A program made the position numbers and the translations under genes. A stretch of 64,000 nt of DNA from Clostridia bacterium (GTDB taxonomy: Bacteria; Bacillota; Clostridia; Christensenellales; UBA1242): the NCBI GenBank assembly GCA_050872785.1, contig JBNMHO010000003.1, positions 12,554 to 76,553 of the forward strand, written 5' to 3'. Below are positions 24,936 through 52,096 of this stretch, piece by piece (position 1 is the first letter of the stretch; the number at the start of each line of letters is the position of its first letter). The notes beneath the pieces were generated by a model. That model was given only the letters and a program-made list of their open reading frames with translations, ran no database searches and was not told the DNA's origin.

Positions 24936-26535
24936 ATGAGATTTTGGGACAAAATGAGAGTTGGCATGTTGTGCGTAAATTACACGCTTGTCATGGCTCT
25001 TTTGTCCATTATCATCTTCGGAGCAACCCAACAAAGAACTTCCTCAAACGTGTCTGTAAGGTATTCTAGACCCTCATACACCGTGACTTTTGACCCAAAC
25101 GGCGGTGAGTTATCCACAATAGGGGGGGGGGGTATCCTCTAAGCAAGTAACCCTTGGTGACGCCTACGGCGACTTACCATTGCCCACAAAAACGGGTTAT
25201 TCATTTGTCGGTTGGAAATATGGCAATGAACTTGTCACTGCTACAACCAAAAACTTGACCCAAGGCGACCATACCTTGACCGCTTCATGGGGACATTCAG
25301 TTAAATTTGACTATAACAACGGAACCCTATCGAACTCACTTTCTCCAACTTATGCTGGGGAAGTCGGCACAACAACTTCACTTCCAAGCACACTTAACCC
25401 AACCTACTCGGGTCACACCTTTGCGGGCTGGCATTATGGAAAAAATTTAATTGAGCCAACGACATTCACTGGCTCCAATTTTATCGCTCTCGGTCGTGAT
25501 TATATGTACACCGACAAAATTACAATCGTAGTCAGAGCATATATGGACGATTGGACGAAATTTGGCACAAAAAAAACCACCCTTATCAGTTGCACTGAAA
25601 GAGGGGGGTGGTCGTTGAGTAATGAGATTGACTATAATGCTGTCAACTATATTTCATTTGCTATTATGAGTGAAAAGACGAATTTATACATACACACACA
25701 TAGTTCTATAACTTTTTCCCAAATGTCTAGTGGTTATCATACATTTATTGGGACTTTTGATGGCTCATATGCACGCTTATATATTGATGGGATTTTGGTT
25801 GGGACAAGTGCAAATGCTTCAACTACAATAAAATATGATTCATCAAATGGAATATTTGTTGGAGCTGAAGCAGAAGCGAATACAGTTTCTCCTTATGGTT
25901 ATTTTTTTACGGGAAAGGTTGATTATGTATCAATAGAAAATAGCACAATAGACGAAGCAAAAAATATAGGAGCTAACTTAATAACAGAAACCAATTTTGA
26001 TGGGTCAAATTATATTTCACTTGGAAAAGCATATAAGTATAAAAGTAAGATAGCTATAACAGTAATGGCTTCAATGAATGACTGGTCAAAATTCTCTTTA
26101 ATGTCAATGATTTCTTGCACCAATGGCGGTGGCTGGACTATTGAGGCAAAGCAAGACGTAATTTTACTTGCTGCATATGATAATAGTAGCAATGATTACA
26201 ATCGGGTCTCTTCTTCTATAAAGACATCTGAACTAAAAAGTGGATATCATAAATTTGTTGGTATATTCAACGGGGAAAATTTGAAATTATATGTAGATGA
26301 TGAGCTTGTGGCAAATGGGACAAAGTTTGGCTCAAAAAACATTAAATATTATTCCGACAATGGTATATTTGTTGGAGCTGAAGCAGGCAATAATACTTCA
26401 ACCCCAGAAGTAGGTTATTGTCAGTATTTTAAGGGAACAATAAGCCATGTTTTCATTGACAATACGTTTGTGGCAGAAAGAGGTATATATATTTATCAAG
26501 ACTTCGATGTTGTTGCAACGGCAATTTGGAACTGA
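24936..26535 (+). CDS. Frameshifted (phase-variable, OFF) surface protein: signal helix + InlB B-repeats + two LamG-like domains
   Basis: ORFs 24936-25142 and 25180-26535 fuse into 532 aa if G11 becomes G10, restoring TVTFDPNGG...GGGVSSKQVTLGDAYGDLPLPTKTGYSFVGW (B-repeat). Confidence 0.85.
25122..25132 (+). repeat. Poly-G (G11) tract in coding sequence, out of frame
   Basis: ata-GGGGGGGGGGG-tatcctct. Confidence 0.95.
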
Positions 26536-26569
26536 AAATATATTTTAGAACAAATATCCCACAAATCTC

Positions 26570-26598
26570 TTGACAAGTGGGACAAAGTGTGGTAAAGT
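26570..26598 (+). promoter_or_regulatory. sigmaA promoter of rplU operon
   Basis: TTGACA-17-TAAAGT with extended TG. Confidence 0.7.
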
Positions 26599-26599
26599 G

Positions 26600-26660
26600 G
26601 CGGTATCCGCATGGAAAAGGTTTAAAAGTGGGCTTTTGGCTTCACCTTAACAGCGAGTTT
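26600..26660 (+). ncRNA. Probable L21 ribosomal-protein leader
   Basis: ccgca...aagg...cctt...gcgagt structured 5' UTR directly upstream of rplU. Confidence 0.55.
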
Positions 26661-26682
26661 GGAGGATAAGGAGGAAAACAAA

Positions 26683-26994
26683 ATGTATGCTATCGTTCTT
26701 TCTGGCGGAAAGCAATATAAGGCAGAAGAAGGCAAGTTTATTGATGTTGAGAAACTTGACGGAAATGTTGGAGATAAAGTAAATCTCGATGTGCTTTGCG
26801 TGTCAGACGAAAAAGGTCTTGAAACAGGCAAACCTGTTTTGAGCAAGGTTAAGTGTGAAGCAGAAATCATTCTTCAAGGAAAACAAGACAAAATCATCGT
26901 TTTCAAATACAAAGCAAAGAAGAATGAAAGAAAGAAACAAGGTCACAGACAACCTTTCACCAGAGTTAAAATATTGTCGATAAAGAGAGTTTAA
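26683..26994 (+). CDS. rplU: 50S ribosomal protein L21
   Basis: MYAIVLSGGKQYK...KQGHRQPFT. Confidence 0.98.
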   Translation: MYAIVLSGGKQYKAEEGKFIDVEKLDGNVGDKVNLDVLCVSDEKGLETGKPVLSKVKCEAEIILQGKQDKIIVFKYKAKKNERKKQGHRQPFTRVKILSIKRV

Positions 26995-26999
26995 TTTTT

Positions 27000-27329
27000 A
27001 TGACAAAAATTACGGTCACTAAAAAAAATGATGAAATCGTGGAACTGGAATGTGACGGACACACCGATTATGGCGTGAACGGCGAAGACATTGTGTGCAG
27101 TGCATTGTCAAGCATTGTCCAAACAGCTGTTTTGGGGCTTATGATGGTCGCTGGCATAAATGTTTCACTGAAAAGGGACGAAAATAGGGGTTATCTTAAA
27201 CTCGTTCTCCCACAAAACATTTCGCAAGAAGCAAGACACGATGCAAATGTAATCTTAAACACAATGATGTGTGGAATAAGTGACCTGAGGGAAGGTTTTT
27301 CAGATTTTATAGAACTGGAGGTTAAGTAA
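27000..27329 (+). CDS. prp: Ribosomal-processing cysteine protease Prp (YsxB)
   Basis: GH...[10 protein letters not shown] motif, between rplU and rpmA. Confidence 0.93.
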
Positions 27330-27330
27330 G

Positions 27331-27624
27331 ATGTTTATTCAGTTGCAATTGTTCGCTCACAAAAAGGGCGGTGGTAGCACAAAGAACGGACGTGACAGTC
27401 AAGCCAAAAGACTTGGCGTTAAATGTGGTGACGGTCAACACGTTCTTGCTGGCAATATTATTGTTCGCCAACGTGGCACAAAATTTTACCCAGGCGACAA
27501 TGTAGGTCTTGGAAAGGACTACACATTGTTTGCACTTCGTGACGGAAAGGTGAAATTTATCACAAAACATGGCGACAAAAAATATGTCACAGTGGTTGAA
27601 GAAACTGCAAAGAAAGCAAAATAA
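27331..27624 (+). CDS. rpmA: 50S ribosomal protein L27 with Prp-cleaved N-terminal extension
   Basis: [23 protein letters not shown]. Confidence 0.98.
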
Positions 27625-27628
27625 ATTG

Positions 27629-27656
27629 AAAATTCCTCGAAATGGGGAATTTTTTT
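27629..27656 (+). terminator. Intrinsic terminator after rpmA
   Basis: aaaattcctc-gaaat-ggggaattttttt. Confidence 0.75.
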
Positions 27657-27657
27657 C

Positions 27658-27686
27658 TTGACAAAATTTATCATATATCCTACACT
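27658..27686 (+). promoter_or_regulatory. sigmaA promoter of poly-G surface gene B
   Basis: TTGACA-17-TACACT. Confidence 0.6.
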
Positions 27687-27721
27687 TTTTGAGAATAATA
27701 AAAATATGGAGGAATTTTAAA

Positions 27722-28610
27722 ATGACTAAAAGGGAACGATTTGTTTTGTGGCTCAATAGGTTTTATCACAAGCAAAATAAGATTACAATTTGTGTCTTAT
27801 ACACCCTCCTTATGGCTATCCTTGGTGTCATTATTTATGGGGCAACTCATCAAAGTTCCTCAAGCAATGTTTCAGTAAAATATACAGTCCCATACTACAC
27901 AATTACCTTCGACCCAAACGGCGGAACCCTCGAAAATGCAGGGGGGGGGGGTATTCTCAAAGCAAGTAAAACTTGGTGACACTTACGGCGATTTGCCACT
28001 GCCAAGCAGACCGGGTTATAGCTTCAACGGTTGGTATGAAGAAGCCCTTGTAACATCAGAATCAGTCCTTTCCACCCCATGCGACAAAACCCTAATCGCC
28101 GAATGGAATGATGGTATACCAGCAGATATGAGAAATTGGGAATTTATAACACCGCCTTATGAAATAGACTTTGCCAATTCGTTTACAAATTGGAATGTCA
28201 GCAATGGGGAAAATAAGTTCGATTTTTGTGGAGTAGGTGGGAGTGAAGTTAAATATACTGCACTTAATCTTGAAAAAAATAAAACATATTCAGTAGTTTT
28301 TGATTATGTTTTGCCAAATTTTACTTATACTGATGCAAACGGGAATTTCCGAGATAAAATGTATTCATATATTGTCAGCATTGATCCTGAAGCAAATTTA
28401 TTATATAATATGACGGATAGGATAGAAACAGTTGTTTCGATTTACACTTTAAATTCAAATACAGACGGGAAAGCCGTCCTATCTTTTACTGCAAGGGAAA
28501 CGGCAAAATATTATCTTGTGGTGAATTTTGGTTATTTGAATGACAATATAACTTATCACTTTGAATTTAATAATTTCACTCTATACACACACCAATGCAC
28601 ATTTGGCTGA
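27722..28610 (+). CDS. Frameshifted (phase-variable, OFF) surface protein: signal helix + InlB B-repeat + CBM-like beta-sandwich
   Basis: ORFs 27722-27979 and 27936-28610 fuse into 295 aa if G11 becomes G10 (TITFDPNGG...GGGVFSKQVKLGDTYGDLPLPSRPGYSFNGWY); paralogous N-terminus to 24936. Confidence 0.85.
27941..27951 (+). repeat. Poly-G (G11) tract in coding sequence, out of frame
   Basis: gca-GGGGGGGGGGG-tattctca. Confidence 0.95.
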
Positions 28611-28699
28611 GTGGTGGGTAGTCTAAATGGTGGGGAAGAAAAATATAAATAATATAATAGGTTTTGGCTTGTTATATTATTTTTTTTGCTGGGGGGATA

Positions 28700-28963
28700 A
28701 TGGTTTCGTTTTTGGAGGAGATTGCAAAGGTTTCGGGGGTTGATCCAAGTGTTGTCGTTGGAAGTAGCAGAGTGTTATATCTTGGTGGCAAGGTTGTTAT
28801 GATAGAAGGCAAGACTAAGTTGGTTGAGATGTCAGACGAACTTGTAAAGGTTAAACTTAAGCGGGGCATGGCGGTTGTTAGTGGCAAAAACTTGAAACTT
28901 AAAAACCTTAATCTTGAAAGTGTTATGATAGTTGGGGACATTGCAGAATTTCAGATTTGTTAA
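28700..28963 (+). CDS. yqfC: YabP/YqfC-family sporulation protein
   Basis: VMIEG...VSGKNLKLKNL...IVGDI pattern, upstream of yqfD. Confidence 0.75.
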   Translation: MVSFLEEIAKVSGVDPSVVVGSSRVLYLGGKVVMIEGKTKLVEMSDELVKVKLKRGMAVVSGKNLKLKNLNLESVMIVGDIAEFQIC

Positions 28964-28996
28964 AGTTGATATGTATAGTTATTAGATTTATGCGAA

Positions 28997-29250
28997 GGCT
29001 CCCCATTGTAAGGGGGAGTGGGTGGGGTCCCCGAAAGTAGCAGCATAGCGAAACTTTTGGGGGAAAAGGAAAGCATGTCCGTAAATTGAGTGGTTGTGTG
29101 AGCAACCTGAATAGAGGACAATGCTTGACGACCCGAGGGGGTAGTCCAGTTTGAGTTATTACTCTATCGTAATATGCTAGTAGAGTAGTTATCCTTGTTG
29201 GACTACCCTTTCGTCAACTTCGTTGACACCTTCCCTTACAAGGGCAGGCA
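28997..29250. repeat. GC-rich multi-hairpin REP/MITE-like element
   Basis: Terminal inverted core TTGTAAGGG (29006-14)/CCCTTACAA (29233-41) plus several internal stems, in an AT-rich intergenic gap. Confidence 0.6.
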
Positions 29251-29327
29251 CACACATTAAATAAATATGCGGTTAATTTTTAGCCTTCAAAAAAAATAAC
29301 ATATTAGTTTATAAAAGTGGGGGATAT

Positions 29328-30245
29328 ATGACGACTTATGAAGTTGTGGGGTTAAATTTTCCAAAGTTTTTAAGCGAGATTGAAAGGCGAAATATATCTT
29401 TAAACAGCCTTGTTAAACTTTCGCATGACAGGTTTTGCGTGGAAGTCGCTTTGGCACAGAAAAAGAAGTTTTTGAACCTTTGCTCGCTTCTTAATATGGA
29501 AGTAACAGAAAAGAAAATTCCCGTTTATGAGCGTGTTTTGCGTGGGATAAAATGCCATGTGCCACTGTCTATTTTTGTAGCAGTTTGCGTGGCTGTTCTT
29601 TTGTTTTCGCAAATGTTTGTGTTCCGAATTGAAGTTTTTGGCGAAACAAGTGTAAGCGAAGATGAGATTGTTTCTGTCTTAAAACAAAACGGCTTTGACA
29701 CGTGGAAAATGCGGGGAAGTTATGACACGCAAGAAGTGGAGCGAGTGCTTACTTCAAACATTCCAAAGATAAGTTTTGCTTCATGCGTTGTGCGTGGCGG
29801 GACACTGGTTGTAAACGTCTATGAAAAAATTGATGCGGAGAAGTCTTTAAGTGCGGGCAAGCCTATTGTTGCACCTTGCGACTTGATAATTGAAGAAATT
29901 TCTTGCACCAGCGGAACAGTGGTCAAACACCAAGGGCAAACGGCAAAGACGGGCGAGAGCATTGTTGAGAATTTTATCATGCTAGGACAAACGAAAATTG
30001 ACATTCCCGCGCATGCAACATTTACTGCAAAAGTGGAGCAGAGTATAAGTCAATTTTTGACACAAAAGACACAAGATGATATGGACATAAAAAAAGTGGT
30101 TGAAGAAAACAAAAGAATGTTGTATAATATGTTATCAGAAGCAAAACTTCTGGACAATATTGAAGAAGAAACAGAACTTTTGGAAACGGAAAACGGGTGC
30201 TTGGTGATAAGCCGTTTTAGAACTAAAATTGAAATTTCTTCATAA
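29328..30245 (+). CDS. yqfD: Sporulation protein YqfD
   Basis: TM then POTRA-like IEVFG..., IVAPCD...G; context yqfC-yqfD-ybeY-era. Confidence 0.8.
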   Translation: MTTYEVVGLNFPKFLSEIERRNISLNSLVKLSHDRFCVEVALAQKKKFLNLCSLLNMEVTEKKIPVYERVLRGIKCHVPLSIFVAVCVAVLLFSQMFVFRIEVFGETSVSEDEIVSVLKQNGFDTWKMRGSYDTQEVERVLTSNIPKISFASCVVRGGTLVVNVYEKIDAEKSLSAGKPIVAPCDLIIEEISCTSGTVVKHQGQTAKTGESIVENFIMLGQTKIDIPAHATFTAKVEQSISQFLTQKTQDDMDIKKVVEENKRMLYNMLSEAKLLDNIEEETELLETENGCLVISRFRTKIEISS

Positions 30246-30258
30246 CAAAGGAAACATT

Positions 30259-30759
30259 ATGAAAGTTGAAATAAACGATTACGCATTGTCAAAAAATTTT
30301 ACAAAACTCATTGGAAAGTTGCTTAAAACTGCAAACAAATATTCAAAATTCAATCAACGAAAAGTGCAAGTGGCAATTAGTTTTGTGGACAAAGACGAAA
30401 TTCAAAAATTGAACAAGGAAACCCGTGGCATAGACAAGCCAACGGACGTTTTGTCATTTCCAACCTTAAACCTTGTCTCACTTCAAAAAATTAACATGAA
30501 AGATCCAGAAATTAGGTGCGACATTGACCCAGAAACCAAACACCTTATGCTTGGCGACATAGTTATTTGCGAAGATGTTGCAAGGAAAAATGCCGAGGAA
30601 TATGGACACAGTTTTGAAAGGGAAATTTGCTATCTTGTTGTGCATGGATTCTTGCACCTTTTGGGTTATGACCACATGGAAGAAGACGACAAAATTGTTA
30701 TGCGTGCGCTAGAGGAAGCAGTGCTTAAAAAATATAACATAACGAGAGATGAAAAGTGA
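30259..30759 (+). CDS. ybeY: rRNA maturation RNase YbeY
   Basis: PTDVLSFP, HGFLHLLGYDH. Confidence 0.96.
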   Translation: MKVEINDYALSKNFTKLIGKLLKTANKYSKFNQRKVQVAISFVDKDEIQKLNKETRGIDKPTDVLSFPTLNLVSLQKINMKDPEIRCDIDPETKHLMLGDIVICEDVARKNAEEYGHSFEREICYLVVHGFLHLLGYDHMEEDDKIVMRALEEAVLKKYNITRDEK

Positions 30760-31658
30760 AAATTAAGTGTGGATTTGTAGCCGTTGTTGGCAAGCCCAAT
30801 GCGGGCAAAAGCAGCCTTGTAAATGCAATTATTAAGGAAAAGGTTTCAATCGTTTCGCCAAAACCACAAACAACGAGAAATAACATTTTGGGGATATATA
30901 ACAGTGACCACAGCCAAATTGTTTTTGTGGACACACCTGGCATAAACAAAACTTCAACGGGCCTTGACAAATTTATGCAAAAGAGCATAAAAGGGGCAGT
31001 GAGTGACGTTAATGCGGTTATTATTGTTTGCGACATAACAAAAGGCGTGGATAGGGTGGAAACTGACCTTGTAGAAAAATATAACAAGGAAAATATCCCA
31101 GTCGTGCTTGTTTTGTCCAAAATTGACCTTGTGAGCGATGAAGTGGTGTTTAAAACATTGCAACAATTATCTCCACTTGCGACACAGTGCGAGATTGTTC
31201 CGCTTTCAAGCATAAAGGACAGAAACGTTGAAACAGTGATTGACGTGGTGGAGAAATTTCTTCCAGAAGTTGACGAAAGAAACAAATATTTTGACGATGA
31301 CGAATACACAGACAAACCCCTAAACTTTTTGGTGGCGGAGATTGTTAGGGAAAAAGCGCTATACTATCTCGATAGGGAAATTCCACATGGCATAGCCGTT
31401 GTAACTCAAAGATTTGAGGAAGACGAAAACTTGATAGATATTGACGTTGACATTGTTTGCGACAAGAATTCACATAAAGCAATTATCCTCGGCAAACAAG
31501 GAACTATGCTCAAAAAAATCGGGCATGACGCTCGTGTTACAATTCAAAAAATTGTCCAAAAAAAGGTTATGCTAAATATTTTTGTTAAAGTTAAACCAAA
31601 TTGGAAAAATAATTTGGAGTTTTTGGATAGTTTGGGTTATAATATAAACGAGTTGTAG
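30756..31658 (+). CDS. era: GTPase Era
   Basis: GKPNAGKSS, PQTTR, DTPG, KH domain. Confidence 0.97.
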   Translation: MKIKCGFVAVVGKPNAGKSSLVNAIIKEKVSIVSPKPQTTRNNILGIYNSDHSQIVFVDTPGINKTSTGLDKFMQKSIKGAVSDVNAVIIVCDITKGVDRVETDLVEKYNKENIPVVLVLSKIDLVSDEVVFKTLQQLSPLATQCEIVPLSSIKDRNVETVIDVVEKFLPEVDERNKYFDDDEYTDKPLNFLVAEIVREKALYYLDREIPHGIAVVTQRFEEDENLIDIDVDIVCDKNSHKAIILGKQGTMLKKIGHDARVTIQKIVQKKVMLNIFVKVKPNWKNNLEFLDSLGYNINEL

Positions 31659-31723
31659 GAATAAATTTTGTTTTTTGAAACATTCTAGTGCTGATGATGC
31701 AACTTGCACGCAAGGGGGACACA

Positions 31724-31981
31724 ATGAACATTGAAAAAGCGTTTGCAAAAGTAAAACTGAATAACTCTAAAAGCAAAGCCTGTGTTGAAACATTAAATTT
31801 CTTAATGGGCAAATACGGCTGGGGTATAACTGTGCTTGCATATCTTACGGGCGAAGACCCAACAACTCATGAGCATTATTGCACAGACGAAGTTTTTGAC
31901 GCCTACGTTGAAGCACTGGAAAATCAAAAATTTGAAACAAATAACAACTTGGAGCAAGAAGAACCTACACTTGAAAGATAA
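31724..31981 (+). CDS. Hypothetical (orphan) protein
   Basis: 85-aa ORF with AGGGGG RBS between era and recO. Confidence 0.6.
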   Translation: MNIEKAFAKVKLNNSKSKACVETLNFLMGKYGWGITVLAYLTGEDPTTHEHYCTDEVFDAYVEALENQKFETNNNLEQEEPTLER

Positions 31982-32000
31982 TTAAAAAAAGAGATTAACA

Positions 32001-32720
32001 ATGGATAAAGCAGTTTCGGGGCTTGTTTTAAAAGCCATTGATTACAAAGAGAACGATAAACTACTCACAATTTTAACTTTGGATATGGGCAAAATTTTAG
32101 TGACCGCTCGTGGTGTCAAAAAACCTACAAGCAAACTAAAATCCTATAGCCAAAGTTTTTGTTTTGGTGAATTTGAATTGCAACAGGGCAAGGCGGGTTG
32201 GGTGCTTGTTGGCGTAAACCCAGTTGACACATTTTTTGAACTTCTATCAGACTTTGAAAAATATAAGGAAGCATGCACTGTCATTGAAATTTGTGACAAA
32301 ATATGTGTTGAAAACCAGTCCTATCCAAAACTTCTTTTGGAAGCCTTGAAAACCATAAAACAAATAAACTACTCGCAAATTTCCCCAAAGTTGCTCCTTA
32401 GCAAGTTTATTATGAATGTTCTAAATTATGAAGGCTTTGGAATGAGTGCAACCCATTGTGCAAACTGCAGAAGTCCATTTATGAAAGAAGTGTATTTTGA
32501 CACCACAACGGGCGAACTTCTTTGCCATGCATGCAGAAATGAAAATTGTGAGCAACTTGACGGCGGCGTGTTTTCCGCACTTAAAATTTTATCCACCACC
32601 GAAGAAAGTAAACTCTCCACCGTCCGCCTGCCAAATGCAGTTGTCGAACGCACATTCACCTTCCTAAACCGAAACCTCTGTAACAAGTTCGAAATCCACC
32701 TCAGTTCGGCTAAATTGTAA
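32001..32720 (+). CDS. recO: DNA repair protein RecO
   Basis: GLVLKAIDYKENDKLLTILT...ARGVKK; CxxC...CxxC. Confidence 0.93.
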   Translation: MDKAVSGLVLKAIDYKENDKLLTILTLDMGKILVTARGVKKPTSKLKSYSQSFCFGEFELQQGKAGWVLVGVNPVDTFFELLSDFEKYKEACTVIEICDKICVENQSYPKLLLEALKTIKQINYSQISPKLLLSKFIMNVLNYEGFGMSATHCANCRSPFMKEVYFDTTTGELLCHACRNENCEQLDGGVFSALKILSTTEESKLSTVRLPNAVVERTFTFLNRNLCNKFEIHLSSAKL

Positions 32721-32738
32721 GAAATTGGGAATAATTTG

Positions 32739-32767
32739 AAAAAATAGGGCTTTAAACCCTATTTTTT
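32739..32767 (+). terminator. Intrinsic terminator after recO
   Basis: aaaaaataggg-ctttaaa-ccctatttttt. Confidence 0.8.
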
Positions 32768-32779
32768 ATGTCATTTTTG

Positions 32780-32808
32780 TTGACAAATTGGGGACAAATA
32801 TATAAAAT
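32780..32808 (+). promoter_or_regulatory. sigmaA promoter of ppdK
   Basis: TTGACA-17-TAAAAT. Confidence 0.65.
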
Positions 32809-32839
32809 TTTCTTTGTGATTTTTAAAGGAGAAAAATAA

Positions 32840-35473: not shown

Positions 35474-35516
35474 TCTCACAACTTGTCTTGGCACAAAAAG
35501 TATATATTCTACAACC

Positions 35517-43196: not shown

Positions 43197-43249
43197 AATC
43201 ATTAACTTTTGGTTTGAATATACAAAAAATAGTGCTAAAATAAAGCGAG

Positions 43250-44881
43250 GTGAAAATGAATTTTCTTGCAGTTGATAACATTCATTTGTATATAACGATT
43301 GTCCTGTCGCTCCTAAACGGAGTGCTTATGTGCTTTGCTTCATACAAATATTTTCAAATTATCCAACTTTCTGGCTATAAACTCAAAGGCTACTTCAGTT
43401 GGCTTAGGGAAACAAAGTGGAGTTACGCTTTAAGAATGGTGCTTTTAAGTTTGCTTAGTGGCTTTTGCGTGCTTGTAACAAATGCACTTTTCAATGTCTA
43501 TCACAAGCAAGCGTTATACTCATATATCGGGCTGATATTTTATTTCTATTTTGCAATCGTATTCATAAAAGCCCTTTACAACGCTCCAAAGAAAATTCCA
43601 CTTAAAAACACCACCCGCATGACAAGACTTAATGTTGCAATGTTCATTTTCGTAAGTTTGTTTTCGTTTGCAGTCGTTTGGGCGTCATTTCAACACCTAA
43701 ATTTTGTAAAGTTCGGTGCCTTGTGTTTTGTGCCAGCGTTTGTTGTGTTTATTGTTCCTATCGTGCATATTATTATGCTTCCACTTGAAAAACTTATTGT
43801 TGCAAGATATCTTCACAGTGCAAAAAGAAAACTTGCCAAACGCCAAGACTTAATTAAAATTGGTGTCACTGGAAGTTATGCAAAAACAAGTGTAAAATAC
43901 ATCTTAAACACAATTTTATCTCAAAAATACAAAGTCTGCATGAGCCCTCAAAGTTTTAACACCCAAACGGGACTTAGCAAAGTGGTGAATAACTATCTTA
44001 CAGACCTAGACCAAGTTCTTATTGCCGAAATGGGAGCAAGGAGCAAGGGAGATATCAAAAAACTTTGCAAACTTATCTCGCCAAAATATGGGATAATAAC
44101 GGGAATTTCACCACAACACCTTTTAACTTTTAAGTCATTGGATAACATAAAGAAAACAAAATTTGAACTGGTGGAAAGTCTGCCAAGTGACGGAACTTGT
44201 GTGTTTAATGGCTTTGACAGCGAAGTCTGCGACATGTATTCATGGACAAATTTAGAGAAAAAATATCTTGTTGGAAAAGACAAAGACCTTGCTGCAAAAG
44301 ACATTACATTCGACCAAGATGGCACAAAATTTACCCTTGTTATGGGTAAAAAAGAGTATAAAGTTTCAACAAAACTTTTGGGCGAACACAATGTCCAAAA
44401 CATATTGCTCTGTGTCAAAATGGCAAAATGCCTCGACCTTGACGACAAACAAATTATTGCTGGAATTGAGTCCTTGCAACCAGTGCCACACCGACTTGAA
44501 ATTATAAAAACTCCAACAAACATTATCCTTGACGACTCATTCAATGCAAATGTCCGTGGCAGCAAAATAGCCCTTGACGTGTTGAGCAAACTTCCGGGCA
44601 GAAAAGTTGTCATAACCCCAGGACTTGTGGAACTGGGAGAAAAAGAATATGAAGAAAACTTCGCCTTTGGTGCAGAAATCGCAAAAATATCTGACTTTGT
44701 AATTATCGTAAACAAAGTGAACTTTGAAGCAATTAAAGCAGGGCTTGACAGCGAGAACTTTAAGGAAGAAAATATCTTCCAAGCCGAAACCCTAGACCAA
44801 GCCAAAATACTTATGAAAGATTTTCTCGCCCCCGGCGACACCATTCTCTTTGAAAACGACCTCCCAGACAACTATATCTAA
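43250..44881 (+). CDS. murF: UDP-MurNAc-tripeptide:D-Ala-D-Ala ligase with N-terminal TM domain
   Basis: GVTGSYAKT, EMGA, DDSFNAN, ENDLPD. Confidence 0.88.
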   Translation: MKMNFLAVDNIHLYITIVLSLLNGVLMCFASYKYFQIIQLSGYKLKGYFSWLRETKWSYALRMVLLSLLSGFCVLVTNALFNVYHKQALYSYIGLIFYFYFAIVFIKALYNAPKKIPLKNTTRMTRLNVAMFIFVSLFSFAVVWASFQHLNFVKFGALCFVPAFVVFIVPIVHIIMLPLEKLIVARYLHSAKRKLAKRQDLIKIGVTGSYAKTSVKYILNTILSQKYKVCMSPQSFNTQTGLSKVVNNYLTDLDQVLIAEMGARSKGDIKKLCKLISPKYGIITGISPQHLLTFKSLDNIKKTKFELVESLPSDGTCVFNGFDSEVCDMYSWTNLEKKYLVGKDKDLAAKDITFDQDGTKFTLVMGKKEYKVSTKLLGEHNVQNILLCVKMAKCLDLDDKQIIAGIESLQPVPHRLEIIKTPTNIILDDSFNANVRGSKIALDVLSKLPGRKVVITPGLVELGEKEYEENFAFGAEIAKISDFVIIVNKVNFEAIKAGLDSENFKEENIFQAETLDQAKILMKDFLAPGDTILFENDLPDNYI

Positions 44882-44884
44882 CCC

Positions 44885-44911
44885 AAAAGACTAGACCTTC
44901 TAGTCTTTTTT
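44885..44911 (+). terminator. Intrinsic terminator after murF
   Basis: aaaagactaga-cct-tctagtctttttt. Confidence 0.75.
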
Positions 44912-44963
44912 CTAAACATTTTGGCGGGCTGTTTCATATATAAAGCCAAAGGACGGGAAAGAT

Positions 44964-46112
44964 ATGAAACAGAATGTTGTGGTGTTGTTTGGCGGGGTGA
45001 GTGTTGAACATGATATTTCAATTATAACTGGTTCGCAAGTGCTTGCAAATTTGGATAGGGAAAGGGACAATATTATTCCAATATACATTTCAAAAGACGG
45101 CAGATTTTTGACGGACGAAAACTTTTGGGATGTTACATATTTTGCAAAAGAACAAAACTTCTCTAAGGCGAAGCAAGTGTTTTTTGCTGCGGGCGGGAAT
45201 TTGTTTTGCATAAAGGGCAAAAAGGCAAAACTTTTATGTAAGGTAGATTTTGCATATCTTGCACTTCATGGCGGAATGGGGGAAAGCGGCTCTGTTCAGG
45301 GACTTCTTGATTGTGCTGGGGTGAAATATTCCAGTTGCGACAGTTTTGCAAGCGGTGTTTGCATGAACAAATTTTGCACCAAAGTTCTAGCAAAAGAGCA
45401 AAAAATACCTGTAGCAAAGGGCATTTTGTTATCTTCAGATGACAAAAATATTTCTGTAAGCGACCTATCTGAGCGGGTTAAGGGGCTTAATTATCCAATA
45501 GTTGTAAAGCCAAACAATCTTGGCAGCAGCATCGGCATAACCTTTTGCAAAGACGAGGAAATGTTGCATGGGGCGGTGACTTTCGCTTTCTTATTTGACA
45601 CAGAAGTTCTGTGCGAGGAAGCAGTCTGCAACTTGAGAGAACTCAACATTGCTTGTCTGGGCTCGGGTGAGATGTGCGAATGTTCTCTTGTTGAAGAAGT
45701 GACACCGAACAAAGATTTCTTAACTTTTGAAAACAAATATCTTGGTGGCGGCAAGGGCATGGAATCGCAAAAGCGAATTGTGCCAGCAAGCGTTTCAAAA
45801 AAGATATTGAATAGGATAGAAATTTATGCAAAGAGAATGTTTAAGGTGGTCAAAATGAAGGGCTGCGTGCGAATGGACTTTTTGATGGATGAAAAGACAG
45901 AAACAGTCTATCTTAATGAGGTCAATCCAATCCCTGGCTCGCTGGCGAATTATCTTTGGGGGAATAAGGGCTATTCTTTCCAAAATTTGCTCGAAAAAAT
46001 GAAGGACTACGCCGACATGGACTATGAGGAAAAGGAGAAAAAGATAACTCAATTTTCTTCTTCCGTTTTGAAAAACTTTTCTGGGTGCGATGGGGACAAA
46101 TTCGGGAAATAA
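44964..46112 (+). CDS. ddl: D-alanine--D-alanine ligase
   Basis: FGGVSVEHDIS, HGGMGE.G, GSSIG, NEVNPIPG. Confidence 0.93.
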   Translation: MKQNVVVLFGGVSVEHDISIITGSQVLANLDRERDNIIPIYISKDGRFLTDENFWDVTYFAKEQNFSKAKQVFFAAGGNLFCIKGKKAKLLCKVDFAYLALHGGMGESGSVQGLLDCAGVKYSSCDSFASGVCMNKFCTKVLAKEQKIPVAKGILLSSDDKNISVSDLSERVKGLNYPIVVKPNNLGSSIGITFCKDEEMLHGAVTFAFLFDTEVLCEEAVCNLRELNIACLGSGEMCECSLVEEVTPNKDFLTFENKYLGGGKGMESQKRIVPASVSKKILNRIEIYAKRMFKVVKMKGCVRMDFLMDEKTETVYLNEVNPIPGSLANYLWGNKGYSFQNLLEKMKDYADMDYEEKEKKITQFSSSVLKNFSGCDGDKFGK

Positions 46113-46203
46113 CACTTAATACAAAAATTGGGAAACATGATTTTCGTTGATTTTTGTTGTAAATTTGTGCAATTTATTGTATCATTTTACAAAAGGAAAA
46201 AAA

Positions 46204-47049
46204 ATGAGAGTTTTGCAAGAGAAAAACAGAATTATTGTTGAAAGCGAAGACGATTTTGACATAAAGCAAATTTTGGAATGTGGGCAAGTCTTTAGTTTTT
46301 ACAAAAGGGACAACGGATACATAGTCACAAGCATGGATAAGGTGGCACGCATAACTCTTTGTGGAGATAAGACAATTATTGATACAAGTGACATTGACTA
46401 TTTTTACAACTATTTTGACCTCGGCACAGATTATGGCAAAATTAGGTCTAAAATTAAGGAATATTATCCCAATTTTGACAAATATTTTGCTGGCGGAAGG
46501 GATATTCGCATTTTGCACCAAAACCCATTTCAAACAATTATTAGTTTTATCGTTTCGGCAAATAACAACATTGCAAGAATTAAGAAAATATTAAACAACA
46601 TATCTTTTAAGTTTGGCAAAAAACTTGAAGATGAAATTTATTCATTCCCAACATTGCAAGCACTAAAAAGTGCTAGAGAAGAAGACTTTGCGGCTGCTGG
46701 GGCGGGTTATAGAAGTGAATATCTTGTTAAAACTATAGAAATGTTGCAAGAAGATAGATATAGCATAAAAAATATGGAAAAATTGCCAACAAATGATCTT
46801 AGAGAACGGCTTATGGAACTTAAAGGGGTTGGCGGAAAAGTGGCAGATTGCATACTATTTTTTGGCTTTGGGCGAAGTGACAGTTTTCCAGTGGATACGT
46901 GGATAAGAAGGGCTTATCTTCTTTTTTGCAGCAAGCCTAGGACGGATAAGGAAATTTCAAAATATTTCTTGCAGATTTTTAGAGAAGTTTCGGGCTATGC
47001 ACAACAATATATCTTCAACTACATGATAAATTACAAACAAGCGGCATAA
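46204..47049 (+). CDS. 8-oxoguanine DNA glycosylase (Ogg)
   Basis: ECGQVF, SANNNI, GVGGKVADC, FPVDTW, GYAQQY. Confidence 0.92.
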   Translation: MRVLQEKNRIIVESEDDFDIKQILECGQVFSFYKRDNGYIVTSMDKVARITLCGDKTIIDTSDIDYFYNYFDLGTDYGKIRSKIKEYYPNFDKYFAGGRDIRILHQNPFQTIISFIVSANNNIARIKKILNNISFKFGKKLEDEIYSFPTLQALKSAREEDFAAAGAGYRSEYLVKTIEMLQEDRYSIKNMEKLPTNDLRERLMELKGVGGKVADCILFFGFGRSDSFPVDTWIRRAYLLFCSKPRTDKEISKYFLQIFREVSGYAQQYIFNYMINYKQAA

Positions 47050-47225
47050 CAAAGTGCGAAGAATGTCGAAAAAAAGTGGAGAAAAATCAATCAATTTATT
47101 TTTTTATTGACCTTTTGTGTGATAAACTAAAGTGTCGAAAGTCAAAATAGGGAAATTTATCTTAAATGACTTTTGGCAAAAACTTATGAAAAAAATTTCT
47201 TGAAACACACAAAGGAGGTTTCAAC

Positions 47226-47729
47226 TTGAAAACAAATATTGTCCTTGTTGGACTTTATGACAAGATGACAAAATCTGTTGCAAAACGGCTGGCTGACGAT
47301 TTTGATATGTATCTTGCCGATTTGGTGGAAATTGTAAAATATAACTTAATGAATGAAGAAGAAATTGAGAAAATTTGTGGCGTGCAATATCTAAACAAGC
47401 AAAAAGCAAAAGTTGTGGGTGATGTTGCAAGTTATGAAAACTCTGTTATCCATTTGCCATATTCCATTTTTTCTGAAGGGGAAAACTCGGACAAGTTTAA
47501 AAAAAATGGCACAACAATTTTTTTAAAACTATCTCTTTCTGCTTTCAAAAAACTTCTTGACAAGGACAAAACAATGTCAAGTGACGAAAAGAAACTTGCA
47601 TTGATTGTTTTTGAAGATAGGACAGTTTTGGGGAAGAAAATGTGCGATTTGACGGTGGAAGTTGACTCGCCAGACTATTTGACGGCTTACAAAAGGACGA
47701 GAAAAGCCTTGGACAACTTTCTTTTGTAA
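47226..47729 (+). CDS. Shikimate-kinase-like protein with degenerate P-loop
   Basis: MKTNIVLVG...AKRLA...D, GTTIFL, R...CDLTV layout but no GxxxxGK[ST]. Confidence 0.55.
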   Translation: MKTNIVLVGLYDKMTKSVAKRLADDFDMYLADLVEIVKYNLMNEEEIEKICGVQYLNKQKAKVVGDVASYENSVIHLPYSIFSEGENSDKFKKNGTTIFLKLSLSAFKKLLDKDKTMSSDEKKLALIVFEDRTVLGKKMCDLTVEVDSPDYLTAYKRTRKALDNFLL

Positions 47730-47812
47730 AAATTTGATTTTTGCAAAAACTAATAGTAAAATTATGTGTAAATATGCGAAAAATGTAGAAAAATGTAAAA
47801 TGTGAGGAAAAA

Positions 47813-49750
47813 ATGAACGAAACATTGGTTAATTATTTAAGAGTTACATCTTGCCTTGAAATTGAAAAAGCGGGTTCTGGACACCCAGGGGTTTGCCTTG
47901 ACGGGGCTCCCATTGCCTTTTCCATTTTTAAAAATGCCAAAAGAGATTGCAAAAACCCTAGGTGGGGAAATAGGGATAGAATTGTCTTTTCCGCAGGGCA
48001 TGCAAGCGCACTTGTGTATGCGTGTCTAAATCTTTTTGGCTATGACATGACTATTTCAGACTTGCAAAGTTTTAGGCAACTTGGCTCAAAGTGTAAGGGT
48101 CACCCAGAGGTGGACATTCCAGGTGTTGACGCCACAACGGGACCGCTTGGACAAGGTGTTGGCATGGCAGTTGGCATGGCGGTTGCAGAAGAATATTTAA
48201 GGGGCAAATTCGCCCATGGGAATTTAAGCCCTATTGACCACTACACCTATTGCTTTGTTGGTGACGGCGACCTTATGGAAGGTGTGGCACAAGAGGCAAT
48301 AAGTTTCGCTGGCACACAAAAGTTATCTAGACTTATCCTTTTGTATGACAAAAACGACATCACAATCGAGGGTTCAACCAACTTTTCAAATAGGGAAAAT
48401 GTAAAACAAAAGTTTATTTCTATGGGTTGGAATGTTTTTGAAGTGGAAAACGGCAACAGTGTGGAAGAAATAGACAGTGCTATTTTGCAAGCCAAAAAAA
48501 GTGACAGACCAAACATCATAATTGTCAAAACAAGAATTGGCTTTGGCAGTGAACTTGAAGGGACAGCAGCAGTTCATGGAAAACCATTAAACAAAGAACA
48601 AATTGAGCATTTACGCCAAAATCTTGGATATTTTGTGCCAGATTGGACTTTAAGTGACGCACAAAAAGAAGAAATGGAAAGAATCCTCTTGCAAAAGCAA
48701 CAAGAAGTGAAATTGTATAACGAAAACATGGACGAATACAAAAGAAAATTCCCAAAAGATTATGCCGAGTATCAAAATATGATAAGTTCGCCTGTGGTGG
48801 AACTTTCAACCTTAATAGAAAAAACGGGGGATAAATTTGACGGCAGAAAGGTGCTGGGGAATGTGCTTAACAAGGTTTATGGCATTGTCCCTATGCTAAG
48901 TTTATGTGCCGACCTCACTCCTTCAACTAAAACAAATGTCGTGGACGGTGGCAACTTTTGTGTGGATAACAGAACAGGCAGAAACGTTATGCTAGGGATA
49001 AGGGAACACGCCATGGGCGCTGTGTGCAATGGAATTGTTTTGAGTGAGCTACCCGCACTTTGCTCAACTTTTATGTCTTTTGCAAACTACATGACTCCAG
49101 CAATAAGACTTAGTACAATGATGTCTGTTCCAACACTATATGTCTTTACGCACGACTCAATATTGGTGGGCGAGGACGGACCAACTCACGAGCCTATTGA
49201 ACAAATTGCAACACTCAGAGCAATGCCAAATATAAATGTTTTCCGCCCATGCGGTGAGGAAGAACTTTTGGCAAGTTTGCAGTGTCATTTTGAAGGAAGA
49301 AAGCCTAGCGCAATCTTAATTTCCCGCAGTGCAGTTTGTGGGGTGAAAGACAACTTTTCAAAGGCACTTTACGGCGGTTACATTTTAAGTGACGCAAAAG
49401 ACTATGTCGCAACTTTAGTTTCTACGGGGACAGAAGTCAGTTTGTGCGAAAAGGTTAAAGAAAACCTTGCAAAAAAGGGAATAAACGTCAGAGTTGTCAG
49501 CATGCCTTGCGTGGAAGTTTTTGACAAACAAAGAAAGAGTTATAAAGATAAAGTTTTGGACGGGACAAAGCCTATTATCTGCGTGGAAGCAAGCAGTGAT
49601 AACGTGTGGCACAAGTTCGCTCAAAAGGAAGAATATGTCTTTACGTTAAAAACTTTTGGCGAAAGCGGAAAACTTGAAGATGTTTGCAAACATTTTGGGT
49701 TAGAAGAAAACTACTTAACAAAATATGTCGAAAAAGTAATTTTTAGTTGA
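47813..49750 (+). CDS. tkt: Transketolase
   Basis: SGHPG, TTGPLGQG, GDGDLMEG, GIREHAMG, GEDGPTH. Confidence 0.97.
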   Translation: MNETLVNYLRVTSCLEIEKAGSGHPGVCLDGAPIAFSIFKNAKRDCKNPRWGNRDRIVFSAGHASALVYACLNLFGYDMTISDLQSFRQLGSKCKGHPEVDIPGVDATTGPLGQGVGMAVGMAVAEEYLRGKFAHGNLSPIDHYTYCFVGDGDLMEGVAQEAISFAGTQKLSRLILLYDKNDITIEGSTNFSNRENVKQKFISMGWNVFEVENGNSVEEIDSAILQAKKSDRPNIIIVKTRIGFGSELEGTAAVHGKPLNKEQIEHLRQNLGYFVPDWTLSDAQKEEMERILLQKQQEVKLYNENMDEYKRKFPKDYAEYQNMISSPVVELSTLIEKTGDKFDGRKVLGNVLNKVYGIVPMLSLCADLTPSTKTNVVDGGNFCVDNRTGRNVMLGIREHAMGAVCNGIVLSELPALCSTFMSFANYMTPAIRLSTMMSVPTLYVFTHDSILVGEDGPTHEPIEQIATLRAMPNINVFRPCGEEELLASLQCHFEGRKPSAILISRSAVCGVKDNFSKALYGGYILSDAKDYVATLVSTGTEVSLCEKVKENLAKKGINVRVVSMPCVEVFDKQRKSYKDKVLDGTKPIICVEASSDNVWHKFAQKEEYVFTLKTFGESGKLEDVCKHFGLEENYLTKYVEKVIFS

Positions 49751-49830
49751 TTAAATTTTATTTTAATGCTAAAATGCCTATGTAAGTCGAATAATGTAAA
49801 ATTTAAACTTTAGTTTTTGAAGGAGGGAAA

Positions 49831-50451
49831 ATGGCAGTCACAAATTCAAAAAAGAAATTGATAATTGCAGTATTTATGCTTTGCACGGCAATCGTTGGCT
49901 TTGTGGCAATGACTTTTTCTATCCTTGCTGCAACAACTCAACAAGTGCAGTCAGTTTTTTCTGTAACATACGCTGGCGACAACGTCTATGCAACTGTTTC
50001 TGGAACATATAGCATAAACGGCGGCACAGCAAGCAACCTAACTGCCACAGACGGCTCCACAAGCCTTGTTTTTACACCAGGAATGGGGCAAACTTCAAAA
50101 ACTCTTTCTTGCCCAGAAGTTGACCTGTCACCAGAAAATAGCTGCTTGTTCTTTGTGTATAAGTTTGAAAACAAAAACCCAAGCGGTGGATATGCAATGC
50201 AAGTTGCTTTTTCAGACGGCTCCACTTCCACAAACATGACAATTACATACTACGCCTCAACGACTTCCGTGCCAACATTGGCTCAAACAGAGGCTTCCAC
50301 CACGGGCAAAAACATAAGTCTTACAGTAAATGCACAATCAACTGGCTACATCGCCGTGTGCGTTAAGATAACGTCAGTTTACCTTGACGCAAGTTACCTC
50401 AGCACCGCTGCAAATGGTGTTTGTGCAACAATTTCAAGTTTAGCGTCATAA
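49831..50451 (+). CDS. Secreted S/T-rich beta protein; stand-alone paralogue of the N-terminal domain of 50546
   Basis: Signal helix + ATTQQVQSVFSVTY; shares NV..S.TY, QT.KTL, F.NKN, NMT..YY, ANG with 50546. Confidence 0.8.
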   Translation: MAVTNSKKKLIIAVFMLCTAIVGFVAMTFSILAATTQQVQSVFSVTYAGDNVYATVSGTYSINGGTASNLTATDGSTSLVFTPGMGQTSKTLSCPEVDLSPENSCLFFVYKFENKNPSGGYAMQVAFSDGSTSTNMTITYYASTTSVPTLAQTEASTTGKNISLTVNAQSTGYIAVCVKITSVYLDASYLSTAANGVCATISSLAS

Positions 50452-50466
50452 ATAACATTCAATCGC

Positions 50467-50493
50467 TTGACAATTCGACATAAATCTTATAAT
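50467..50493 (+). promoter_or_regulatory. Possible sigmaA promoter of gene 50546
   Basis: TTGACA followed by TATAAT (15-nt spacer, suboptimal). Confidence 0.4.
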
Positions 50494-50545
50494 CTATTGT
50501 ATATTTCAATGTGTAAATCAAAAGACTAAGGATAGGAGAGAAAGG

Positions 50546-52096
50546 TTGAAAAAGAAGATTTTTTCGTTGATACTCACAGCAGTTCTTATTGTGACAGCCT
50601 CTGTCGCAATGGTCTTTTATGCTTTGGCTGCAACCCAAATCAACCTAAAATCTACCATTGAAGTTGGTTATACTGCAGCACCAAATGTCGTCTGCGAAGC
50701 CAGTGCAACCTATCAACTGGAAAAAGATGCCTCGGCAACTGCCTTTACTTCTGGTGGACAAAGTTTCGCTTACATAGACTCTCAAACAACAAAAACACTC
50801 ACCGCCAGCAACTCTGCCTTGGTGCTTAATGACATGACCAGTTCATATGTCATATTCACATTCACATTTAAGAACAAAAACTTAATGTCAACTTTCAATC
50901 TTAACATCAAACTTACAGACAATTCACTCTGCTCAAATATGACAAGAAAATATTATTTTGGCTCACTTTCTTCATCAAACCTTGCCAATCTCGCCAGCCA
51001 AATAAAATCTAACGGCGTTGACTACTCCGCACTTTCAAGCCAAACCTTAACTCTGGGCTATCAAGAAACTGGCAAAGTCTATATGCTTGTGGAAATCATT
51101 TCTGGCCTTAAGGGAAGTTACACCGCAAACACCGCAAATGGCTTCAAATTTACGCTTACAACCACCACGGGGGGGGGGGTAGCCTTTCTTAGCAGTGACT
51201 GGAAAGACCGCCTTAACATAGGTATAGAAAATATAGAAGACAACAATGTAACAACCCTTATTTTTACAAAAGACTCAGCCCAAACAAGCGGACTTTCAAA
51301 TAGCAAGTCAGTTGGCACAAACAGTGCAACAAGCACTTCTGCCTACACAACAGCCCCAGGAATTTCTGATGTTACAGCCTACTGGAATAGCAACAAGTCA
51401 AAAATTGTTATTTATTCACCAAACACCATTTATGCCCCACAGAGCTGCTATCAATTGTTTGATCTTTGTGAAAAAATGACAACCATAGATTTATCCAACT
51501 TTAATACTAGCATTGTGACCGATATGTTTTGTATGTTTTCTGGCTGTAAATCTCTAATAAACCTAGATTTAAGCAATTTTAACACCAGCAATGTGACGAA
51601 TATGTGTGAAATGTTCTTGCGTTGTTCTGGACTAACCAGTCTAAACTTAAGCAATATTGATACAAGCAAAGTGACGGATATGGAGGGTATGTTCTATAAT
51701 TGTTCTGGGTTAACCAGTCTAAACCTAAGCAATATTGATACAAGCAAAGTGACGGATATGGGGATTATGTTCAGCGGTTGTTCTGGGCTAACTAGTCTAA
51801 ACCTTGGCAACTTTAACATGCAGGCCTGCACTAATTTTTATTACATGTTTGATGATTGCTCCGCCCTTAATTCAATAACTCTGCCATACAACTTGCAAAG
51901 CGGAAAGACAATAGACCTGCCAAGTCTAGATAGTGGATATTATTACACTGCCGATACTTCTGACATTTCCGTAGGTGCTTATTCTTTTACAAAAATTGGA
52001 ACGGAAACTAATCTCGCAAATAATGTTATAGCTTGTTCAACAGCAAGCAAAAAAGTAGAGGTGTGGAAAAACTCTGGTACTCCTGATATAACCTAA
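50546..52096 (+). CDS. Surface protein: ~210-aa N-domain + in-frame poly-G hinge + BspA/DUF285-like LRR repeats (phase ON)
   Basis: Signal helix; TTTGGGV encoded by G11; 26-aa repeats LxxLNLSNxxTSxVTxMxxMFxxC. Confidence 0.85.
   Translation: MKKKIFSLILTAVLIVTASVAMVFYALAATQINLKSTIEVGYTAAPNVVCEASATYQLEKDASATAFTSGGQSFAYIDSQTTKTLTASNSALVLNDMTSSYVIFTFTFKNKNLMSTFNLNIKLTDNSLCSNMTRKYYFGSLSSSNLANLASQIKSNGVDYSALSSQTLTLGYQETGKVYMLVEIISGLKGSYTANTANGFKFTLTTTTGGGVAFLSSDWKDRLNIGIENIEDNNVTTLIFTKDSAQTSGLSNSKSVGTNSATSTSAYTTAPGISDVTAYWNSNKSKIVIYSPNTIYAPQSCYQLFDLCEKMTTIDLSNFNTSIVTDMFCMFSGCKSLINLDLSNFNTSNVTNMCEMFLRCSGLTSLNLSNIDTSKVTDMEGMFYNCSGLTSLNLSNIDTSKVTDMGIMFSGCSGLTSLNLGNFNMQACTNFYYMFDDCSALNSITLPYNLQSGKTIDLPSLDSGYYYTADTSDISVGAYSFTKIGTETNLANNVIACSTASKKVEVWKNSGTPDIT
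51169..51179 (+). repeat. Poly-G (G11) tract in coding sequence, in frame
   Basis: accaccac-GGGGGGGGGGG-tagcc. Confidence 0.95.
51467..51880 (+). repeat. 78-bp tandem coding repeats (about 5 LRR units)
   Basis: tgttctgg units at 51623, 51701, 51779 exactly 78 bp apart with near-identical framework. Confidence 0.85.

Follow-up and report, generated by a model that had tools for sequence, protein, structure and literature searches.

Poly-G tracts at a fixed position in a dispersed family of predicted surface-protein genes from a reduced-genome Clostridia bacterium: probable ON/OFF switching by slipped-strand mispairing

We analyzed a 64,000-nucleotide stretch from the metagenome-assembled genome (MAG) of a Clostridia bacterium of the Christensenellales (GCA_050872785.1, contig JBNMHO010000003.1, positions 12,554 to 76,553; hereafter the window), in which three genes for putative secreted proteins, here called genes 1, 2 and 3, each carry a long run of G. 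These runs probably act as classical slipped-strand switches that turn poly-G surface-protein genes ON and OFF. Exactly three G runs of at least 9 were found in the 64-kb window, all on the + strand, when 0.06 would be expected, and none of 100 shuffles reached this count. All three are G11 followed by TA, and the productive frame of each gene reads Gly-Gly-Gly-Val at the tract. A first-pass annotation of the window had reported these three runs as the only ones of their length, with a common GGG-V hinge, two genes out of frame (1 and 2) and one in frame (3), a promoter-like sequence for each gene and a setting among housekeeping operons. Recounting of the runs and re-reading of the frames, promoter-like sites (Table 1) and neighboring genes bore out each of these points; the neighbors are the class-II aldolase, L21-Prp-L27, YabP/YqfD, transketolase, RRF and UppS genes.

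The same annotation had proposed a dispersed, genome-wide repertoire, and a scan of the whole genome (G000; 1,110,236 bases in 37 contigs, 37.7% GC, 98.5% completeness, 0% contamination) revealed a larger one than proposed, with 23 tracts or about 20 per Mb. G/C runs of length 6, 7, 8, 9, 10, 11 and 12 occur 25, 1, 1, 2, 6, 10 and 5 times, so that the 23 runs of 9-12 form a second mode. The over-representation expected of slip-prone homopolymers (of about 8 or more) is thus seen both in the window tracts and in the genome-wide length counts. In all 23 cases the G is on the sense strand, and 19 of the tracts lie at one fixed position of a common 5' cassette, in the first Flg_new repeat. The order in this main family is a leader (in gene 1 as in the others, a charged N-terminus and about 21 hydrophobic residues), a conserved stretch ending in YTVTFDP, the tract, and the motif (S/Y)xSxKxVxLGDxYGDLPxPTRxGYxFxGW. 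A tblastn census of G000 recovered 22 leader-bearing loci, 19 with the tract and three without it, the latter reading NGGS. The best Flg_new match begins no more than 6 residues from the tract, at profile positions 13-16, in 14 of the 17 downstream parts scanned against Pfam; this places the tract within the repeat's first strand or loop. Because the tract cuts off the first 12 profile positions, several paralogues score only 22-25 bits. Genes 1 and 2, with 46.7 and 29.3 bits for Flg_new (the Listeria-Bacteroides repeat, PF09479, cut-off 27), are both above the gathering score. The C-termini of the family are diverse and comprise LamG pairs (gene 1 and a gene on C17), DUF285 with BspA-type leucine-rich repeats (C2:8935), more Flg_new repeats, a sub-threshold CBM_4_9 match (C5), or nothing known to Pfam.

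Among the main-family copies five of 19 are in frame and 14 are out of frame, the observed lengths being 9-12 and the productive length 10 or 11 according to the gene. Over all tracts, 17 of 23 are in a non-productive state. The 12 complete out-of-frame family copies nevertheless keep downstream open reading frames (ORFs) of 218-618 aa with no second lesion, and two others run off contig ends. Gene 2, from ATG 27722, meets a stop soon after its tract, and its long frame extends to 28610. Gene 1 starts at ATG 24936 and in the G11 frame stops at 25140-25142; the long downstream frame reaches 26535. The downstream part of gene 1 has 93% protein identity with its orthologue in the closest relative (G008, 'Christensenella sp. 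UBA7862', transketolase 96% identical) and a ratio of nonsynonymous to synonymous divergence (dN/dS) of 0.15, against 0.02 for the aldolase used as a control; the gene is out of frame in G000 (G11) and also in G008 (G12). With one productive length class per gene and purifying selection on gene 1, a change of one unit would toggle an otherwise intact gene. The runs might instead be mutational hot spots that inactivate the redundant genes of a decaying family on their way to loss. The large share of non-productive tracts, the reduced genome of 1.11 Mb and the tract-less or interrupted versions carried by relatives would fit such a process. However, the intact frames behind the tracts, the constraint on a gene that is out of frame in two species and the maintenance of tracts at 9-14 across at least three species make decay quite unlikely. 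Since runs of 7-8 are almost absent and the tracts are kept long, selection for long runs is pointed to.

The frames also bear on whether the tracts have been read correctly and whether the shift takes place in DNA at all. With lengths that range from 9 to 12, and some genes in frame at 10 and others at 11, no single systematic error or programmed shift explains the observed states. If the true tracts were all in frame and the MAG consensus off by one base, the out-of-frame copies would be assembly or sequencing artefacts. Illumina sequencing is prone to errors in homopolymers of 10 or more, the contigs are interrupted at tract 1, a run of 15 G terminates one metagenome contig, and PMC9187656 describes artefacts at G-tracts and a database length unlike the majority in culture. 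Lengths differ, however, among identical contexts within one assembly, the same family appears with varied lengths in separately assembled genomes, and in the Logan assemblies of three public runs a 3922-nt contig reads G11 at tract 2. Moreover, copies that need +1 stand beside copies that need -1, so that a one-base error could not put all of them in frame. We therefore regard a general artefact as very improbable. Doubts that the first-pass annotation had itself raised, namely miscalled G11 tracts, uniform lengths and a family without further members, were not borne out, as the run at 27941 is G11 in the contigs of the three runs, which may however be the source of the MAG, lengths differ between genomes and the members are many.

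Under recoding the DNA tracts would stay fixed, and every copy would give some full-length protein through slippage of RNA polymerase or frameshifting of the ribosome at the G run. Long homopolymers are sites of RNA polymerase slippage, as established for A/T runs; a one-base shift would be required in 14 of the 19 family copies and, among the genes of the window, in two of three, and tract 2 is G11 in the three runs and in the sister species. Yet tracts set in identical contexts range from 9 to 12, some copies would have to shift by -1, others by +1 or +2 and five of the 19 not at all, and DNA length itself differs in four of seven orthologue pairs. A programmed frameshift or transcriptional realignment would be expected to show one length and one direction of shift across copies, and neither was found. 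No conserved stimulatory structure turned up, no search having been aimed at one. Recoding is thus unlikely to explain the tracts, and RNA slippage may add some leakiness on top of DNA switching.

Length differences between genomes are what slippage in DNA would leave behind. Seven tracts could be paired between G000 and G008 by both flanks, which are 87-98% identical, and four of the seven pairs differ in length (9 v 11, 11 v 12, 11 v 10 and 10 v 11); five G008 tracts that were masked or at contig ends were left out of this count. Unequal lengths were also seen in two additional pairs placed by their upstream flank only. By comparison, the same 40 kb of alignment contains 114 A/T runs of 6-9, and only four of these vary in length. 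The repeat numbers of orthologues thus vary more than their flanks, as in contingency loci (four of seven pairs by this count, one of four by the strict rule given below). Within the three public runs that hold the stretch, contigs break at tract 1, and a 50-nt contig with one G fewer was found in all three, at depths of 4.7, 20.1 and 7.1 versus single-locus depths of 11.9, 39.5 and 11.1. Tract 2 was bridged as G11 by one 3922-nt contig in each run and no variant was listed, so a G11 run does not automatically yield a variant branch. These data are suggestive of a G10/G11 mixture at one locus.

Several points weigh against slipped-strand switching of the DNA tracts. Under a strict automated flank rule only four G tracts were scorable and one of them differs, and three of the seven pairs above are of equal length (11 v 11). 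The public runs were examined as Logan contigs; the three runs belong to one study, possibly the source of the MAG itself, and are not independent. Of the G10 contig, 48 nt align to the stretch and match gene 1 and its twin G000:C21:6065 equally well, and the G10 branch could be a homopolymer sequencing or PCR (polymerase chain reaction) error. Tract 2 shows no variation in the three runs, though contigs drop rare variants, and is G11 in the G008 orthologue too. The in-frame share of five in 19 equals the expectation for neutral length drift, and the tract lengths of the MAG may be off by one base. Finally, mutS and mutL are present in G000, so that a raised slippage rate is not arguable from loss of repair; loss of mismatch repair, considered as a driver of slippage, was ruled out on this account. 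A metagenome scan with the neighboring aldolase yielded 4 loci only and no strain series; of the sister-species contigs at these loci, one ends inside the tract (G15 at the end) and another is without the tract.

For the switching that we favor, the following course is proposed. During replication a run of G9-G12 would gain or lose one G by slipped-strand mispairing, and the frame would move between one productive state (Gly-Gly-Gly-Val) and two non-productive ones, which would stop after a membrane stub of 60-90 aa. About 20 genes would switch in this way, independently and reversibly, and the population would come to show changing combinations of surface proteins. The predicted proteins would have an N-terminal membrane anchor, a Flg_new stalk and variable heads of LamG, CBM-like (carbohydrate-binding module), PARCEL or unknown beta-rich type. 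In gene 3 the same switch would operate at a domain linker, its OFF state leaving an N-domain protein of roughly 210 aa that resembles the stand-alone paralogues. The benefit may be escape from host immunity or phage, or a changed binding target.

Table 1. Positions of the tracts, genes and promoter-like sites in the window.
Feature	Position	Strand	State or basis
Promoter-like site, gene 1: TTGACA, 17 nt, TAGAAT	24873-24901	+	11/12 consensus match only
Gene 1 5' cassette: 62-aa leader and first Flg_new strand, ending NGGELSTI	24936-25121	+	ORF, leader census
G11 tract 1 (gene 1)	25122-25132	+	out of frame; in frame at G10 or G13
Gene 1 after the tract, open for 466 aa: remainder of Flg_new, Laminin_G_3, Laminin_G_2	25135-26535	+	Pfam
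Promoter-like site, gene 2	27658-27686	+	10/12 consensus match
Gene 2 5' cassette: 73-aa leader and Flg_new start	27722-27940	+	ORF, leader census
G11 tract 2 (gene 2)	27941-27951	+	out of frame; in frame at G10 or G13
Gene 2 after the tract, open for 218 aa: remainder of Flg_new and an all-beta C-terminal region	27954-28610	+	ORF, Pfam
Stand-alone paralogue (206 aa) of gene 3 N-domain, directly upstream of gene 3	49831-50451	+	tblastn, 31% identity
Promoter-like hexamers, gene 3: TTGACA and TATAAT, both perfect	50467-50493		15-nt spacer, outside the range of the scan
Gene 3 N-terminal part: signal-peptide-like helix and beta-sandwich domain	50546-51168	+	sequence; model pLDDT (predicted local distance difference test) 85.4
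G11 tract 3 (gene 3)	51169-51179	+	in frame; linker between N-domain and PARCEL/DUF285 module
Gene 3 C-terminal module: PARCEL (TIGR02167)/DUF285 (PF03382) repeats	51180-52096	+	profile matches

Concerning the C-terminal domains assigned by the first-pass annotation, the two LamG domains of gene 1 and the DUF285 repeats of gene 3 were recovered by profile, and the CBM-like sandwich of gene 2 is a lead and no more. Gene 2 has no Pfam match besides Flg_new; it reached a language-model score of 0.93 to GalBD-like/CBM_4_9 clusters, and the AlphaFold model of its C-terminal part, made with no alignment, was unusable (pLDDT 46.8). In run X4, which comes from another study and is 90-95% alike, the housekeeping flanks are covered and the bodies of genes 1 and 2 (25104-26160 and 27671-28576) are not; as no contig joins across them, this is only a hint that the two loci differ there and may be strain-variable islands. 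Two other observations were made near these genes. At 24771-24782 a GGGAGG ribosome-binding site lies 7 nt before the start (24770, - strand) of a divergent small ORF resembling those of the major facilitator superfamily, and in sister species a nine-G run replaces this ribosome-binding site (G008 L081 2364-2372; L116 4692-4700). A contig found in two runs passes directly from 26956 to 27346, leaving out the Prp protease gene that lies between L21 and L27; its shorter side covers no more than 23 letters, and it may come from another organism.

Gene 3 (50546-52096) is a single open frame of 516 aa with its G11. A leader shared by all three genes had been claimed at first; genes 1 and 2 do share it, and the N-terminal domain of gene 3, 207 aa long, is a different one that places the gene in a second family. 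Neither these first 207 residues, a helix and a beta-rich domain, nor the stand-alone paralogue upstream gave a Pfam match, while the C-terminal module scored 123.6 bits against a cut-off of 25 and also 156.7 bits against 30, in five stretches. Eight copies of the N-domain are present in G000, including gene 3 and the adjoining ORF; the other six are three tandem stand-alone genes on C19 (11978-14346) and three longer genes. Relatives of the domain amount to 72 cluster representatives among 1.84 billion proteins, most of them stand-alone and of about 205 aa, and relatives have, for example, GDGV at the tract position. The model of the domain found no clear fold match in Foldseek (best TM-score 0.35), and its best VIA-align hit, to pilin/adhesin domains, has a Z of 6.3, in a range that the tool calls common.

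In G008 the orthologue of gene 3 carries G10, a length that would give an N-domain-only product. Identity between the two orthologues is 0.82-1.00 up to 51181, 0.37-0.75 from there to the gene end and at least 0.95 after 52142, and the synonymous divergence (dS) is 0.27 before the tract, in the N-domain, and 1.93 after it. The break in identity and the jump in dS indicate that a divergent C-terminal allele begins within about 15 nt of the tract. Swapping with a paralogue inside the genome was considered as the source of this C-terminus and rejected, since the closest sequence is the G008 allele itself (66% at the nucleotide level) and the paralogues reach at most 41% at the amino acid level. 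As the tract of gene 3 doubles as a domain linker, a recombination hot spot is not distinguishable here from a permissive site.

Mosaicism in the main family takes another form. Between the start codon and a point about 90 nt past the tract, paralogues show a nucleotide identity of about 0.7; it falls to about 0.3 beyond and is about 0.2 upstream of the start codon, and the promoters are therefore not common to the paralogues. The flank subtypes on either side of the tract (NGGELSTI...SSK or FDPA...SPS) are concordant in all 19 copies. The two leader types occur with both flank types (10, 4, 3 and 1 copies, plus one unclassed), which shows exchange between the leader and the tract patch. Furthermore, the gene 1 orthologues of G000 and G008 are 93.5% identical overall, and about 60 nt around the G008 tract belong to the other flank subtype, indicating short-patch conversion between paralogues. 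In the sister species G019, one of nine family tracts (L127) is a chimera of the long upstream flank with the SPS downstream flank. The notion of the tract as a junction for module shuffling, also put forward in the first-pass annotation, is thus upheld by gene 3 and by L127 of G019 and does not extend to the main family, where homology passes through the tract and the flanks agree.

Tracts were also located in small ORFs upstream of genes of the second family. In G000 these are G12 at C3:79881-79892 (L099 1882-1893), G9 at C4:62072-62080 (L103) and G11 at C24:828-838 (L110), and the same arrangement is found twice in G008 (L084 1731-1741, L089) and three times in G019 (L120, L123, L128). The small ORF that contains the tract is conserved, has a strong ribosome-binding site, encodes a peptide beginning with MTY and precedes a gene of the gene-3 N-domain family by 150-400 nt; across eight loci of three species both its ribosome-binding site and its start are conserved. 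In the seven loci that can be judged the small ORF is always followed by a hairpin and a T-run. The hairpin of L084 is a formal terminator-like hit, and fold z-scores are -2.9 for both L110 and L084, -0.45 for L103 and -0.25 for L099. For the small ORF to extend into the hairpin, the tract length must be 7, 10 or 13 (L084, L110); in L099 the frame set by these lengths crosses the hairpin and reaches an ATGA overlap with the main start. All five upstream-ORF tracts of G000 and G008 are in other frames, and one of the three in G019 is G10, at a locus where the stops of two frames are only 8 nt apart. We put forward as a hypothesis that these small upstream ORFs mediate frame-dependent attenuation or coupling.

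At least one G run of 9 or more is present in 18 of the 28 genomes of the genus, with 23 in G000, 16 in G008, 13 in G019, 10 in G011 and 9 in G041, and the motif G9TATC was absent from all 16 genomes examined from other families of the order. The same main family, with G10-G14 tracts, is present in G019. Database relatives of the family are named at most 'InlB B-repeat-containing protein'. At the tract position 17 of the 26 public relatives examined read GGGV, and the remaining nine, which read GGV, GGEV, GGAV, GGGS, GGGA or GGES, would mostly be interrupted tracts and fixed ON. Three database proteins, P0027-P0029 (relatives of G000:C20:12166), begin MTRQGGGV and have no membrane leader, because gene callers chose the in-frame TTG just before the out-of-frame tract; such starts are an annotation artefact of the switch. 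In a degenerate pattern scan of all species genomes, three of 81 contexts among the matches listed belong to the leader family and one to the upstream-ORF type, the others being unrelated.

G runs were found in other settings as well. In G041, loci L133-L137 have G9-G29 in promoter spacers between TTGACA and TAAAAT/TAGAAT (for example G15 in L137), and the runs of 16-29 G may partly be assembly artefacts. Another species of the genus, G042, has G9 and G10 tracts within genes encoding multi-pass membrane proteins (L138, L139). In more than 30 species records of Collinsella (among L140-L215, e.g. L186 4287-4306), a conserved locus shows G9-G13 flanked by a TTGCC/TTGCA-like box and TATCCT, and looks like a promoter-spacer switch. 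One may speculate, with considerable doubt, that the G run is a general switch of the genus, deployed as the multigene 5' cassette, in the promoter spacers of G041 and as a phase-variable attenuator in which a small ORF senses the frame for a second-family gene, the tract and its hinge being possibly a preferred recombination edge for C-terminal heads (gene 3, L127 of G019).

Full-text literature searches gave no account of this protein family, nor of phase variation in this lineage; the main text of PMC12306168, on reduced-genome Christensenellales from the guts of farm animals, contains none of the terms 'surface', 'adhesi' or 'repeat'. The system is not new in the sense first proposed, because the mechanism corresponds to classical homopolymer phase variation. 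The lineage, the protein family and the size of the repertoire are new, and the upstream-ORF arrangement possibly so. Most of what is known of homopolymer phase variation comes from a few cultured pathogens, and here about 2% of genes appear to be under such switches in an uncultured, reduced-genome, commensal-type member of the Clostridia from animal guts. This suggests a way of life for these dependent gut bacteria that includes stochastic surface variation, for escape from immunity or phage or for a change of partner. Since gene callers split or mis-start these genes, MAG-based inventories would undercount surface proteins. The tracts also offer about 20 built-in markers for within-host population dynamics, and the upstream-ORF arrangement, if true, would be a simple natural device that turns a change of DNA length into a decision on transcription or translation.

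Among known systems, homopolymers in promoter spacers switch the vlp genes of Mycoplasma and the porA and opc genes of Neisseria; the sister species G041 resembles them in having G runs between -35 and -10 hexamers, whereas the arrangement in the window is different. The upstream-ORF tracts recall known 5'-leader switches, in which a variable G run in the leader tunes a downstream surface gene, but here the run is within a translated small ORF with a strong ribosome-binding site and is followed by a terminator-like hairpin. In logic the closest analogue appears to be the opa family of Neisseria, about a dozen dispersed paralogues with a repeat in the leader-coding region. Both would consist of unlinked surface paralogues with a common 5' cassette bearing a slip-prone repeat, with independent switching and combinatorial expression, and in both the paralogues are mosaics made by recombination. 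Nevertheless, the repeat is a G9-G12 homopolymer here and a pentamer in opa; it lies in the first Flg_new strand or loop after a membrane anchor instead of inside a cleaved signal peptide; and the Flg_new/LamG/PARCEL proteins of Clostridia have no sequence relation to the beta-barrel outer-membrane proteins encoded by opa.

In tract type and density the closest analogue would be Campylobacter. Campylobacter jejuni and Helicobacter pylori carry dozens of G/C tracts of about 8-13 in small genomes, mostly in genes for surface structures, and share with G000 the bimodal length distribution and a similar tract density. Their tracts, however, are in unrelated genes, largely glycosyltransferases, while 19 of the 23 tracts described here occupy one homologous position in one family. 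To our knowledge Campylobacter and Helicobacter are without mutS and mutL, both of which G000 keeps. A Gram-positive gut commensal provides another parallel: in Bifidobacterium breve, according to PMC9187656, a G11/G12 tract turns a sortase-dependent pilus ON and OFF by replication slippage, and as in our genes the tract parts the secretion signal from the body of the surface protein and annotations split the gene. A Bifidobacterium genome has one or two such loci, in LPXTG pilin genes, whereas here there are about 20 loci in another protein family, no LPXTG was seen, and tracts also occur in upstream small ORFs. In ecology, the pilus G-tract switch of B. breve appears to be the closest known system to the one described here (PMC9187656).

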